This document shows, piece after piece, positions 53,429 to 58,796 of a DNA stretch of 64,000 nucleotides. The notes beneath the pieces are model-generated. The model saw only the letters and a list, made by a program, of their open reading frames with translations, ran no database searches and was not told where the DNA came from. Every line of letters begins with the position of its first letter. The first letter of the stretch is position 1. Position numbers and translations under genes: made by a program. The DNA comes from Candidatus Aenigmatarchaeota archaeon (lineage in GTDB: Archaea > Aenigmatarchaeota > Aenigmatarchaeia > CG10238-14). The stretch covers positions 39,998-103,997 of the forward strand of contig JAOAJH010000002.1 of NCBI GenBank assembly GCA_026414305.1. Reading direction: 5' to 3'.

Positions 53429-54493
53429 ATGGAGAATAAATACGAATATTTTCATAGGTTTGGTTGGTCAAAAAACCCGTTTAATCTTACCATATCCCCA
53501 GACCTTATGGTGGGATATTCAAAGCAAACAGAATCTCTCCTTACTCATGTTTTCAATCAGCATAAAGCGGCAATGGTAATAGGGCCTACAGGTGCTGGGA
53601 AAACAACAATTCTTACATGGTTGAATGCCCAAATAAAGGCATATAATGGGTTTAAAACATATTATGTGCCCAAACCACCTGTAAGTAAAGATGAGTTAAT
53701 TCAGCTGTTTAAACATAATCTTGGTTTTGGGTTTATAGATAAAATAATCTATAAAAATGTAGACATAAACAATCTTACAAGCTATATAACAAAAAAGACA
53801 AAGGTAAGAACAATATTTTTGGTTGATGAAGCACATGAATGCTCTATTGAAGTCTTGGAGTGGCTGAGAACAATAAATGATATGGTACCCAACCTTGTAA
53901 TAGTTTTTGCCGGGTTGCCTACATTTGAAAAGAAACTTGAAACAGAACTACCAACACTTTTAATGCGTGTGAATACACGTGTATTGTTAGAGTCTCTATC
54001 TGAGATGGAAACAGAATCACTTATACAGAAGAGGATTGATTTTGCAGGAGGTGAAGGCATAAAACCCTTCACTAATGATGCTATAAAGAAAATTCATGAA
54101 ATAACAGGAGGCTTCCCAAGAGAGATAATAAAAGTTTGTGACCAGCTTGTTAAAGAGGCCAGCCTGAGGAACCTTAGTTCAATAAACGCTCATTTGGTTG
54201 AACAGATTTTCAGTGAAAAAATAGTTTCACATGCAGATCAAGTGAAGTTCACGTTAACACCAAAACAAAAAGAAATACTTGAAATGTTGAACAAAAACCC
54301 AGATCTTTCACCATCAGAGATAGTGGAAAGAATAAATGTAAAGGAATACAAGACAAAAGACCATGCAATAAGGTCTGTTAATAACATACTCAAAAGGTTG
54401 ATGGATGAAGATTTGATAAAAAGGGCAAAAGTGGCAAACAAATTTGTATATTCTCTTTCAGGGAAAGCAAAAACCATCCTTGCAGAAGCGTGA
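53429..54493 (+). CDS. ExeA-type AAA+ ATPase (AAA_22/COG3267-like) with a C-terminal winged-helix domain
   Basis: The N-terminal FHRFGWSKNPFNLTISPD is an ExeA-like FGL..PF motif. Walker A GPTGAGKTT, Walker B FLVDEAHE. C-terminal wHTH PSEIVERINVKEY...ILKRLMDEDLI. Confidence 0.7.
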   Translation: MENKYEYFHRFGWSKNPFNLTISPDLMVGYSKQTESLLTHVFNQHKAAMVIGPTGAGKTTILTWLNAQIKAYNGFKTYYVPKPPVSKDELIQLFKHNLGFGFIDKIIYKNVDINNLTSYITKKTKVRTIFLVDEAHECSIEVLEWLRTINDMVPNLVIVFAGLPTFEKKLETELPTLLMRVNTRVLLESLSEMETESLIQKRIDFAGGEGIKPFTNDAIKKIHEITGGFPREIIKVCDQLVKEASLRNLSSINAHLVEQIFSEKIVSHADQVKFTLTPKQKEILEMLNKNPDLSPSEIVERINVKEYKTKDHAIRSVNNILKRLMDEDLIKRAKVANKFVYSLSGKAKTILAEA

Positions 54494-54556: not shown

Positions 54557-54820
54557 TTGGTTGATACTAGAGTAAAAGCAAAAAGCGTTATAGGCAAAAC
54601 GATAATTAGTGAAGAAACAGGCAGAAGATTTGGGGTTGTTAGTAACGTTGATTTTGTAACAGAGAGCGGTGAATTGCTAAACATAGTGGTTGCAGGTGCT
54701 ACAAAAGCTTTGAAAGATTTAAACTTAAAAGAGGATGACAAAGGGAGAATGTTAATACCGTTCAGCGCAGTAAAGTCAATAGGAGACTTTGTTGTTGTCA
54801 GTGAAAACGAGCTGCTTTAG
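54557..54820 (+). CDS. PRC-barrel domain protein (TTG start)
   Basis: VIGKTIISEETGRRFGVVSNVDFVTESGELLNIVV. PRC-barrel pattern, 87 aa. Confidence 0.65.
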   Translation: MVDTRVKAKSVIGKTIISEETGRRFGVVSNVDFVTESGELLNIVVAGATKALKDLNLKEDDKGRMLIPFSAVKSIGDFVVVSENELL

Positions 54821-54821
54821 A

Positions 54822-55478
54822 CTATTTTTTACCCCACAATATCTTTTTGCCATATTTTATTCTGTATACTAGGCCTTTTTTCTCCATTTCTATTAATATT
54901 TGGTTTGCTCTGCTTCTTGATATCCCTACAAGCTCCCCTATTTCTTCGCTCCCGAGTTTTGATCCGTTTAATTGCTTTAAAATTTCCCTTTCCCTTAGAC
55001 CAGACTCAAGATTTTCTGCTGATTTTTCAATTTTTTTCAAAATTTTCAACTGTTGATTACTGTTGATTGTTGTTGACAACTGTTGATTACTGTTGATTGT
55101 TGTTGACAACTGTTGATTGTTGATGACTGATCTCATATGGTCTATACTTTTTCTTATTTCTTCTAATTCTTTAAAGAAATCTTCATTGGAATTTACTTCT
55201 TCTTCAAACCTTTTTTCAGTTAACACTTTATCTTGGACCCTCATATCGAATTTTATATCTAATCCAGTTATTTTCTCTTTTATCAGAGCTATGTCATTTG
55301 CCATCTGCTCAATCTGTCCTATTCTTCTAGCGTATTGTAAGTCCCTTCTGTTATATACATCAACTGTTGACAACTGTTGATTACTGTTGATTGTTGTTGA
55401 CAACTGTTGATTGTTGTTGACAACTGTTGATGATCTTTTAATACCAAGAATATTTTTCATAAAATCTTTGAAACTCAT
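54822..55478 (-). CDS. wHTH transcription-regulator-like protein with N-terminal and central tandem NQQLSTTINS decapeptide repeats and a coiled-coil
   Basis: C-terminal GSEEIGELVGISRSRANQILIEMEKKGLVYR wHTH. There are 2 N-terminal and about 3 central copies of INSNQQLST, encoded by perfect 30-bp DNA repeats. Confidence 0.65.
   Translation of the reverse strand: MSFKDFMKNILGIKRSSTVVNNNQQLSTTINSNQQLSTVDVYNRRDLQYARRIGQIEQMANDIALIKEKITGLDIKFDMRVQDKVLTEKRFEEEVNSNEDFFKELEEIRKSIDHMRSVINNQQLSTTINSNQQLSTTINSNQQLKILKKIEKSAENLESGLREREILKQLNGSKLGSEEIGELVGISRSRANQILIEMEKKGLVYRIKYGKKILWGKK
55047..55128. repeat. Perfect 30-bp tandem repeat (about 2.7 copies), caactgttgattactgttgattgttgttga, in-frame inside CDS 54822-55478
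   Basis: Direct reading of the sequence. A second block lies at 55361-55435. Confidence 0.9.
55361..55435. repeat. Second block of the same 30-bp / 20-bp tandem repeat units
   Basis: caactgttgattactgttgattgttgttga followed by truncated copies. In-frame in the same CDS. Confidence 0.9.
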
Positions 55479-55513
55479 AAATAATTATTAAATTCTATTA
55501 TATTTATTTTTCT

Positions 55514-56497
55514 TCACATCCACTTCACATCCACTTCATCTATTCTCCAATCTTTCTTTATGAAAGAATCTTCTATTCTTGTGAAGCATTTAGCGTTTGA
55601 CATAAGAAGGCCAGTGTACGCAATCATAACCCCATTGTCTCCAGAATATTTTAAAGGAACAGAAAATAACTTTGCATCTCTTTCTTTGCACATTATTTCT
55701 AACATTTCATTTAATCTTTGATTTGCTGCAACCCCACCAGTAACTAGAATTTCCTTCTTTTCTGTGTGGGCCAGCGCCCTTTCTGCCGCTTCTATTAGCA
55801 TTGAAAAGCAACTTTCCTGAAAAGAATAGGCAATGTCCTCAATTTTAACACCTCTTTTGGCAAGCCTTTGACATTCTGTGACTATCCCAGAAAAAGAAAA
55901 ATCCATACCCTTTACTATATAAGGAAGATCAACCCATTTACCTTTTTTAGCGATTTTTTCAATTACAGGACCTCCAGGCATTTCAAGACCCAATGATCTA
56001 GCAAGAACATCAAATGCATTTCCTATAGGTATATCGAGTGTTTCCCCAAATACTCTATATCTGCCTGACTCGTATGCTATGATTTGAGTGTTTCCACCTG
56101 AACAGTAAACAGTTACAGGATCCTTGCAATCTGTAAGCAATTTTCCTATTTCAAGATGGGCAACTGGGTGATTTACACCAACAAGAGGTTTTTTGTATTT
56201 AATCGAGATATATCTAGCAATAAATGCACCTAAAGTTAAACAATTTGGCAAACCAGGGCCTTGAGAAAAAGACACGACATCTATATCTTTCAATGAAATA
56301 TTTGCTTTGATTAAAGCATTTTTTAGAATATTTGCAGCATTTTCTGAATGAAACTCGAAAACTTTTCTTGGAAGCATACCTTGACCCAACGGTGGCTTGT
56401 AAAAAGACTTTTCATCTGCTAGTATTTTTTTATCTTCAACAACACCTATGCCAAAAGTATGCGCAGTTGATTCTATACCAAGGGATATTTTACTCAA
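55514..56497 (-). CDS. kae1: Kae1/TsaD tRNA N6-threonylcarbamoyladenosine synthase (KEOPS catalytic subunit)
   Basis: ASKHD/HSP70-type fold. The N-terminus ISLGIESTAHTFGIGVV is present, and GVNHPVAHLE carries the metal-binding His pair. Confidence 0.9.
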   Translation of the reverse strand: MSKISLGIESTAHTFGIGVVEDKKILADEKSFYKPPLGQGMLPRKVFEFHSENAANILKNALIKANISLKDIDVVSFSQGPGLPNCLTLGAFIARYISIKYKKPLVGVNHPVAHLEIGKLLTDCKDPVTVYCSGGNTQIIAYESGRYRVFGETLDIPIGNAFDVLARSLGLEMPGGPVIEKIAKKGKWVDLPYIVKGMDFSFSGIVTECQRLAKRGVKIEDIAYSFQESCFSMLIEAAERALAHTEKKEILVTGGVAANQRLNEMLEIMCKERDAKLFSVPLKYSGDNGVMIAYTGLLMSNAKCFTRIEDSFIKKDWRIDEVDVKWM

Positions 56498-56711
56498 TTA
56501 TTTCACCTCTTATTATGGCAGCACTACCACCAGAATTTTTAATATCTTCCATAATTTCTTTTACCATCATAAAATTAATTTCATTATCCTCGATTGACCA
56601 TGTAGAATCCATAATTTTAATGGCATTATATCTTTTCAATTTTCGCCACACCCTTACCATTAAGGAATTTTTTGCTTTTGGAATGTCGTATATTAATAAT
56701 ATTGAAGGCAT
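56490..56711 (-). CDS. Cas2-like small protein (ferredoxin-like fold, 73 aa)
   Basis: ILLIYDIPKAKNSLMVRVWRKLKRYNAIKIMDSTWSIED parallels Cas2 ([35 protein letters not shown]), with the N-terminal beta1 Asp conserved. Overlaps the kae1 start by 8 nt. Confidence 0.45.
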   Translation of the reverse strand: MPSILLIYDIPKAKNSLMVRVWRKLKRYNAIKIMDSTWSIEDNEINFMMVKEIMEDIKNSGGSAAIIRGEIIE

Positions 56712-58575: not shown

Positions 58576-58671
58576 GCAGGGGTAGCCAAGCGGCCAAAGG
58601 CGCAGGACTTAAGATTTAATAGGAAATCCTGTCTCTTAGTGAGTTCGAGAGTTCGAATCTCTCCCCCTGCA
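58576..58671 (+). tRNA. tRNA-Leu (anticodon TAA) with a 12-nt intron after position 37 and a long variable arm. CCA is not encoded.
   Basis: Acceptor GCAGGGG/CCCCTGC. Anticodon stem CAGGA/TCCTG with loop CTTAAGA plus inserted ATTTAATAGGAA. T-arm GAGAG-TTCGAAT-CTCTC. Confidence 0.8.
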
Positions 58672-58696
58672 TTGTAAACGTGAGAGTTTTCCTTAT

Positions 58697-58782
58697 GCAG
58701 GAGTCGCCTAGCCTGGTCAATGGCGCTAGGTTCAGGGCCTAGTCCGTTAGTCGGTTCCTGGGTTCAAATCCCAGCTCCTGCA
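58697..58782 (+). tRNA. tRNA-Leu (anticodon CAG) with a long variable arm
   Basis: Acceptor GCAGGAG/CTCCTGC. Anticodon stem CTAGG/CCTAG with loop TTCAGGG. T-arm CTGGG-TTCAAAT-CCCAG. Confidence 0.85.
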
Positions 58783-58796
58783 AGAATTATTTTTTT

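Follow-up and report, generated by a model that had tools for sequence, protein, structure and literature searches.

Repeat-mediated phase variation is a textbook bet-hedging device of bacteria. The opa genes of Neisseria carry coding repeats of the pentamer CTCTT and are phase-variable by slipped-strand mispairing, while the phasevarions of Haemophilus, Neisseria, and Mycoplasma depend on repeat-controlled mod methyltransferase genes. Coding minisatellites under concerted evolution are known from the serine-aspartate repeats of staphylococcal adhesins and from the FLO/ALS repeats of yeast. Among DNA-level elements, parC of plasmid R1 has its 11-bp repeats in two clusters of five, and Bacillus subtilis has a parS site inside spo0J. 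Features of each of these systems are found in one gene of a hot-spring Aenigmatarchaeota archaeon, which lies at 54822-55478 on the minus strand of a 64,000-nucleotide stretch of its genome (hereafter the window; assembly GCA_026414305.1, contig JAOAJH010000002.1, positions 39,998 to 103,997). The gene encodes a protein of 218 residues and contains two blocks of tandem repeats, both of them in frame according to the list of open reading frames (ORFs).

The locus resembles opa in that a non-triplet unit in the 5′ part of the coding sequence is read in three frames, and the gain or loss of a unit shifts the frame. It differs in its unit length (10 bp instead of 5), in the presence of a second array between two domains, and in a copy number of 7 + 7 units that is conserved across species. 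Opa is a phase-variable bacterial surface protein, whereas the window gene encodes a cytoplasmic archaeal protein that is predicted to bind DNA, and switching is a candidate property. The likeness to phasevarions is that the tract lies in a gene that would act on many others, and a single mutable tract could thereby switch a regulon. The product, however, is a winged-helix protein and not a methyltransferase, its gene has longer units, and hypervariability from one species to the next is not seen in the tract. As in the coding minisatellites, repeats from the same genome resemble each other more closely than repeats from different genomes do, and there are copy-number variants attributable to slippage or recombination. 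The staphylococcal and yeast units are multiples of three and stay in frame, whereas the 10-bp unit forces a three-unit period and makes every single-unit change a frameshift. With parC and parS the locus shares two clusters of direct repeats spaced by a helical turn and the precedent of a DNA-binding protein whose site lies inside its own gene, but here the arrays are translated, no nucleoside triphosphatase gene adjoins them, and the rest of the window and the orthologous loci, about 150 kb in all, contain no further copies. On balance, we lean toward reading the locus as a self-homogenising, slippage-prone 10-bp coding minisatellite, which specifies polar linkers around a coiled coil and is a candidate contingency locus.

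Two arrays of a 10-bp unit read in three frames

The gene and its arrays are the following.

54822..55478, minus strand: coding sequence of the coiled-coil and winged-helix protein (ORF list, homologue search)
55362..55431, minus strand: N-terminal array, 7 x 10 bp, coding-sequence nucleotides 48-117, about residues 16-39, SSTVVNNNQQLSTTINSNQQLSTV (Tandem Repeats Finder and coding-strand reading)
55048..55117, minus strand: C-terminal array, 7 x 10 bp, coding-sequence nucleotides 362-431, about residues 121-143, NQQLSTTINS x 2.4 (Tandem Repeats Finder and coding-strand reading)

Tandem Repeats Finder, run on the whole window, gives its top score (144) to the C-terminal block, which is placed at 55047-55118 with a period of 30, 2.4 copies, and 100% matches. 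The N-terminal block (55361-55430) is assigned a period of 20 (2.8 copies, 94%) or a period of 30 at 75% only. A first-pass annotation of the window had described two blocks of perfect or near-perfect 30-bp repeats. Both blocks are real and the C-terminal one is indeed perfect at 30 bp, but the N-terminal one is not 30-bp periodic, and the true unit in both is a 10-bp sequence, RTCAACARYW on the coding strand, in seven head-to-tail copies each. Its TCAACA core recurs at coding-sequence nucleotides 49 to 109 and 363 to 423. The spacing is exactly 10 bp (about one helical turn), and the two clusters of seven start 314-317 bp apart. The 30-bp pattern of the C-terminal array is a higher-order period, and the N-terminal array includes a perfect 20-bp duplication.

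A unit of 10 bp is not a whole number of codons and is hence translated in each of the three frames, with successive units read as TCA-ACA (S-T), xTC-AAC (I/V-N), and CAA-CAG (Q-Q). Three units make up one polar decapeptide, NQQLSTx(I/V)Nx, which takes the form NQQLSTTINS in the C-terminal block. The encoded peptides, SSTVVNNNQQLSTTINSNQQLSTV in the N-terminal block (24 residues) and VINNQQLSTTINSNQQLSTTINSNQQ in the C-terminal block (26 residues), have N+Q contents of 38% and 46% and S+T contents of 38% and 31%, respectively; the in-frame decapeptides rich in N, Q, S, and T that the first-pass annotation had seen on either side of a coiled coil are thus confirmed in composition. All occurrences of the composite motifs in the window fall within this gene: CAACWGTTG is found 7 times (0.55 expected), GTTGWCAAC 5 times (0.49 expected), and TCAACAN4TCAACA, with up to one mismatch, 13 times (1.08 expected). 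No copy of the repeat motif was found outside the gene, either in the window or in the orthologous loci.

Concerted evolution at constant copy number

Orthologue DNA (loci L001-L023) was collected through genome, metagenome, and per-protein look-ups. Nine distinct orthologues, with 66-99% protein identity to the window gene, contain exactly 7 + 7 units, and one other contains 6 + 6. The order of the unit types, which are told apart by the tails GTT, ACA, GCA, GTA, and GAA, varies among genomes despite the fixed count. The higher-order pattern varies with it, from the 30-bp period of the window to a 20-bp period in the C-terminal block of L007 and four identical units in a row in that of L005. 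As the order of unit types differs while 7 + 7 is retained, units are exchanged in a 10-bp register with the count held. L004, the lineage at 46% identity, has a degenerate 10-bp array for its N-terminal block and a single copy for its C-terminal block.

The N- and C-terminal blocks undergo concerted evolution, because the blocks of one genome are more alike than orthologous blocks. On average, N- and C-terminal blocks share 94.0% identity within the same genome and 89.1% between different genomes, while the orthologous comparisons average 89.4% (N-terminal) and 88.8% (C-terminal). In a permutation test, the observed within-genome likeness was attained in only 231 of 20000 permutations. L003 provides a direct example, as a C-to-T variant of the core (TTAACA) stands at matching unit positions of both blocks. 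The first-pass annotation had taken the identity of the copies as a sign of recent expansion. All orthologues with 66% identity or more carry the array, however, and at 46% it is degenerate; it is ongoing homogenisation that keeps the copies alike. Nor did the comparison of orthologues give what that annotation had named as the contrary outcome, a fixed count with diverged units: the count is nearly constant, but the units are homogenised and length variants exist.

The arrays are also conserved at the codon level. Where all 11 orthologues have the same residue, they share one codon in 16 of 18 columns within the repeats and in 4 of 75 columns elsewhere. The Nei-Gojobori proportion of synonymous differences (pS) is 0.27 in the repeats and 0.72 elsewhere, while the non-synonymous proportion (pN) is similar, at 0.117 and 0.136, respectively. 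Each position of the unit serves as codon position 1, 2, and 3 in different units, and a variant that spreads is therefore non-synonymous somewhere. Three-frame reading together with homogenisation is sufficient to freeze the nominally synonymous sites without a second function.

A mechanism can be proposed in which slippage, unequal exchange, or gene conversion in the 10-bp register would keep the units alike within and between the blocks. A change at any unit position would be non-synonymous in two frames or in all three, and spreading variants would be selected against, while selection would maintain the in-frame 7 + 7 state. The same repetitiveness would turn the gene into a mutational hot spot.

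Length variants in public assemblies

Five contigs depart from the expected length. All of them are assembled contigs and not reads, and they are listed with their canonical partners (JGI, Joint Genome Institute).

L013 (ERZ27245891, ENA k141) against L007/L017/L018 (JGI and SPAdes ENA assemblies; L017/L018 are JGI 3300020139 and ERZ650669): 0 mismatches over ~3.6 kb; N-terminal block -30 bp, C-terminal block -20 bp; split ORFs of 138 + 76 residues
L014 (ERZ27247235) against L008/L019/L020 (L019/L020 are ERZ27247228 and SRR6049666): 0 mismatches; N-terminal block -30 bp; in frame
L015 (ERZ27247226) against L005: 0 mismatches; C-terminal block -10 bp; ORFs of 143 + 75 residues
L016 (JGI 3300044273) against L005: 9 point differences in the gene outside the arrays; N-terminal block +30 bp (10 units), with three whole-unit swaps between GTTG and GCAA; in frame
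L023, 965-1316 (FWWL01022515.1, GCA_900175155.1): no canonical partner; N-terminus and winged helix directly linked by a single six-unit array; junction out of frame

The suggestion of a variable repeat number thus holds in part: public contigs that are otherwise identical or nearly identical differ in length, but the 7 + 7 state is fixed across species and the same in strains that have diverged by ~4%. Nor are the steps confined to 30 bp as had been supposed, as frameshifts of -10 and -20 bp occur besides the changes of 30 bp in either direction. Each deletion equals the internal period of the affected array (10, 20, or 30 bp), which is expected of slippage and of assembly collapse too. The -10 and -20 bp alleles of the C-terminal array separate the winged helix from the coiled coil by frameshift. 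In L023 the central coiled-coil region of ~314 bp is missing, which reflects either a natural recombination deletion between the blocks or a shortcut taken by the assembler across the repeat. The unit swaps of L016 are real differences between close strains.

We infer that such variants are present in cells, where replication slippage or recombination would produce them, and that they alter the activity of the regulator. A change of three units in either direction would yield linker variants that differ by 10 residues. With one or two units gained or lost, the reading frame would change; if this happened in the C-terminal array, coiled coil and winged helix would be uncoupled. Exchange from block to block would remove the coiled coil.

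Several observations weigh against this reading. Relative to the canonical form, four of the five variant contigs are shortened, as they would be if an assembly had collapsed, and one of the populations has low coverage (SPAdes cov 4.6). The arrays are unchanged in two strains that have diverged by ~4% from the window, and the 7 + 7 state is held across species, unlike the classical hypervariable contingency loci. The contig of a strain with 98% identity, L011, breaks inside the N-terminal block (L011 1-40), a sign that assemblers struggle here. The low synonymous divergence, finally, could equally reflect a function at the DNA level.

Most of these points feed the alternative that fares best, in which the blocks are fixed-length polar linkers under selection and all public length variants are artefacts of assembly, polymerase chain reaction, or sequencing. 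The retention of 7 + 7 units in nine orthologues, the identity of the arrays in the ~4% diverged strains, and the end of the L011 contig within the N-terminal block all suit it. A single batch of k141 assemblies supplied three of the variant contigs, all of them with deletions, and a junction of the L023 type is the classic path of an assembly graph through a two-copy repeat. This account does not cover L016, in which the array is expanded instead of collapsed and carries swaps of whole unit types. Furthermore, the same k141 pipeline recovered the canonical allele in another sample (ERZ27247228, as opposed to the -30 bp allele in ERZ27247235), and a deletion allele needs junction k-mers that, from the way de Bruijn assembly works, should be obtainable from reads alone. 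Concerted evolution itself requires frequent exchange events, which create variants of just this kind. An origin of all the variants in artefacts is accordingly rather unlikely.

A possible DNA-level function

The arrays might alternatively be a DNA-level element inside a coding sequence, that is, helically phased TCAACAG sites which act as an operator, an iteron, or a centromere-like site and to which the encoded winged-helix protein or some other factor would bind, with the peptide as a tolerated by-product. This idea draws in part on the region upstream of the gene, where two features are found.

55512..55539, minus strand: three (C/T)GTGAAG(T) direct repeats, spaced at 11 bp, which overlap the last Kae1 codons (Tandem Repeats Finder and orthologue upstream regions)
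55494..55510, minus strand: TATA-like A/T-rich box, AAAAATAAATATAATAG on the coding strand (direct sequence reading)

Tandem Repeats Finder reports the repeats at 55512-55538 (period 11, 2.5 copies, 100%), and the 11 orthologues have 3-5 copies of (C/T)GTGAAG(T) at 11-12 bp spacing, which mostly continue past the Kae1 stop codon. The TATA-like box starts ~32 nt and ends 16 nt before the ATG and is conserved as AAAATAAATA in orthologues. Such a box suggests a promoter that belongs to the gene itself and a leader that is short or missing, and the (C/T)GTGAAG(T) array looks like a candidate operator or upstream element. Repeats and box together take up 55494-55545 in the window and stand at the same place in L001-L016, except that in L004 the repeat/TATA element is absent and the gene follows Kae1 after 22 bp. 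A promoter and terminator scan relied on bacterial consensus sequences and is uninformative for an archaeon.

The coding arrays have the look of such an element in several respects. Their 10-bp spacing corresponds to one helical turn, they form two clusters 314-317 bp apart from start to start, the unit contains the dyad CAAC-N-GTTG, the synonymous sites are nearly frozen, and a second phased direct-repeat array (GTGAAG at 11 bp) lies in the promoter region of the gene. Non-coding-looking TCAACA arrays at 10-bp spacing also occur in phage contigs, including GTCAACAGTT x5 in L041. Yet the motif is confined to this gene over the window and the ~150 kb of orthologous loci, with no evidence of a regulon, and the frozen synonymous sites are explained as well by three-frame reading and homogenisation. 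L004 keeps its recognition helix almost intact although its arrays are degenerate or absent, and distant paralogues lack the repeats. Among the attributes of iterons and centromeres, clustered direct repeats at the helical turn are present here, whereas a non-coding location and adjoining partner genes are not: no ParA/ParM-type gene adjoins, and the genes nearby encode Kae1, a PRC-barrel protein, and an AAA_22 ATPase that has a winged helix. A DNA-level element with the peptide as by-product is therefore improbable.

Both blocks have hairpin potential as single-stranded DNA (z -3.4 to -4.7), a point in favour of the minisatellite reading. The whole mRNA folds no better than shuffled sequences (z -0.58), and in its minimum free energy structure each block pairs mostly internally and not with the other block; a role in RNA structure was rejected on these grounds. 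Rfam gave no family match in or near the gene.

Architecture of the encoded protein

The window protein (P0019) is identical in sequence to MCX8178534.1 (N3D75_01740), from a Candidatus Aenigmarchaeota metagenome-assembled genome (MAG). Apart from the two linkers, it has two recognisable regions.

55125..55358, minus strand: conserved central helical region, residues 41-118, probable coiled coil (invariant alignment columns, AlphaFold2, heptad test)
54828..55001, minus strand: winged helix-turn-helix domain, residues 160-217 (AlphaFold2, Foldseek, Pfam)

The AlphaFold2 model, which was computed on a 19-sequence alignment, has a mean predicted local distance difference test (pLDDT) score of 70. 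It takes on the order of a short N-terminal helix, the N-terminal block, helices 44-78 and 88-129, the C-terminal block, and a helix that leads into the winged helix. Residues 15-40 of the N-terminal block and 125-138 of the C-terminal block are of low confidence (pLDDT <50), whereas the winged helix is modelled with confidence (pLDDT ~90). It consists of helices 160-170, 177-184, and 188-200 and strands 204-209 and 212-217 in the order H-H-H-E-E, and this three-helix bundle with a β-hairpin wing supports a confident prediction of a winged helix-turn-helix. The winged helix claimed in the first pass is borne out by this model and by Foldseek, which matches the domain to ArsR/SmtB, MarR, and Zalpha structures in the PDB. 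Pfam winged-helix models score below their cut-offs at residues 162-211 (the best is TrmB, with 23.3 bits against a threshold of 25.6), while distant family members pass HTH_24 with 33-44 bits (cut-off 21.9). The protein is thus predicted to be a DNA-binding regulator. Matches to the ESCRT proteins EAP30/Vps36 (E ~0.01) are confined to the winged helix, and a link to ESCRT was rejected.

The central region harbors most of the invariant residues of the family in the motif YNxRDLQYARRxGQIE...LDIKFDxR...LTE of the alignment. In a crude heptad test, in which hydrophobic a/d positions were compared with 2000 shuffles, residues 44-78 have 8 of 10 such positions hydrophobic (98 shuffles equal or better) and residues 88-118 have 6 of 8 (18 shuffles equal or better). 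The two helices therefore form a probable coiled coil between the blocks. The central domain has no curated family; a sequence profile search of the PDB and NCBIfam gave just weak generic winged helix-turn-helix matches. From the model, the arrays probably encode flexible, low-complexity linkers that flank the dimerisation region.

A prion-like or condensate-forming segment that drives self-assembly of the regulator, as also raised in the first pass, fits the N+Q content of 38-46%, the S+T content of 31-38%, and the low-confidence, seemingly disordered prediction on both sides of the coiled coil, but is highly improbable, because blocks of 24-26 residues are far shorter than known prion domains and the core of roughly 60 residues used by prion-domain predictors, their residue identities change freely among species, and relatives function without repeats.

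Distribution of the family

A word-indexed search gave 18 homologous clusters, the named ones all being Candidatus Aenigmatarchaeota MAGs, and a profile search found 31 relatives among 1.84 billion representatives, every named one again from Aenigmatarchaeota. The family thus appears to be restricted to this phylum, and the combination of a coiled coil and a winged helix with two repeat blocks is, as far as these sequences indicate, an unusual architecture, in agreement with the first-pass view that it is not a standard one. Literature searches did not find a description of this protein or of its repeat.

Within the orthologues, the residues of the blocks vary among species (L/Q, T/V/A, I/V, S/N/C/R) as the unit types swap, and the gene is intact in L006, L009, and L011. 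The recognition helix of L004 (SRSRTNQ) is nearly unchanged, though its arrays are degenerate or absent. The distant Aenigmatarchaeota relatives have no repeats. They possess the helical region and HTH_24 in a different gene neighbourhood, with a single QQLTIVE.KKIEKI motif at the position of the C-terminal block. P0070 and P0077, both annotated as winged helix-turn-helix domain-containing proteins, share family, phylum, helical region, and winged helix with the window protein and differ from it in the single QQLTIVE motif, the lack of repeats, and the other gene neighbourhood. The sequence of this motif in repeat-less relatives may bear on the origin of the array.

Gene neighbourhood

The gene order is kept down to the 46%-identity lineage and comprises a ChrB_N-like ORF, Kae1, the gene itself, a convergent PRC-barrel gene, the AAA_22 ATPase with a winged helix, LigT, an OB-fold protein, and Toprim. 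The following features surround the gene in the window.

54557-54820, plus strand: PRC-barrel protein, 87 residues, convergent, very conserved including in the 46% lineage (neighbourhood comparison)
53429-54493, plus strand: AAA_22 ATPase with a C-terminal winged helix (neighbourhood comparison)
56490-56711, minus strand: ORF of 73 residues, ChrB_N above cut-off, weak Cas2-like match, overlaps the Kae1 start by 8 nt (position conserved in orthologous loci)
58576-58671, plus strand: tRNA gene, 96 nt, found by Rfam and not by ARAGORN
58696-58783, plus strand: tRNA-Leu(CAG), adjoins the tRNA gene at 58576-58671 (tRNA annotation)

The ATPase is judged to be ExeA-like by its N-terminal sequence, while no family model assigns it to ExeA. 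Judging by its length, the 96-nt tRNA gene probably carries an intron. A link to cell division through the PRC-barrel neighbour is not claimed, since the synteny may be simple inheritance within one clade.

Similar repeats in other genomes

In a family of phage contigs of ~12.5-18 kb (L025, L027, L028, L035, L036, L042, L044, L048, and L052), ATTCAACAGC recurs every 10 bp in 5-9 copies, close to one end of the contig (at ~790 nt from it). The five copies of GTCAACAGTT in L041 lie at 171-206 of a 363-kb viral contig and are identical to a unit of the archaeal gene. To judge from their sequence, the viral arrays of the TCAACA type are probably iteron-like. P0039, a protein of 460 residues from the search of representatives, is an unrelated ORF that has a GC-rich, proline/arginine-rich N-terminus and ends in ~18 decapeptides of the STTVNNCQQL type. 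As it carries these decapeptides, a similar 30-bp-periodic satellite exists in another genome.

Implications for a contingency locus in Archaea

The favoured reading, a coding minisatellite that homogenises itself and is prone to slippage, leads to the question of whether its variability is put to use. Contingency loci are recognised in sequence by a repeat tract in a coding sequence or promoter, a unit that is not a multiple of three, and frameshifted alleles in assemblies, and all three are found here. If the arrays acted as a switch, toggling would be reversible in 10-bp steps among full-length, split, and null or mini forms. The split form would arise from a frameshift in the C-terminal array, the null or mini form from a frameshift in the N-terminal array or a deletion from block to block, and the 7 + 7 state would be the selected ON state. 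That the arrays are exploited in this DPANN archaeon as an adaptive, selected switch (phase variation) is a doubtful proposition at present.

Regardless of switching, the locus is a clean natural case of a 10-bp unit that is translated in three frames. It also advises caution in the use of synonymous sites: since concerted evolution and three-frame coding together freeze them, suppressed synonymous divergence need not prove an overlapping functional element. The locus has all sequence prerequisites for repeat-mediated phase variation, and the gene in which it lies encodes a regulator in an archaeal lineage that is uncultured and depends on a host. Phasevarions have been covered in a review (PMC11868660) and a bioRxiv preprint (10.64898/2026.04.01.715767), and the review names the archaeal distribution of repeat-mediated phase-variable loci as future work. 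If the switch were real, the gene would be a transcription factor gene under repeat-mediated phase variation in Archaea, a domain from which scarcely any locus of this kind has been described.

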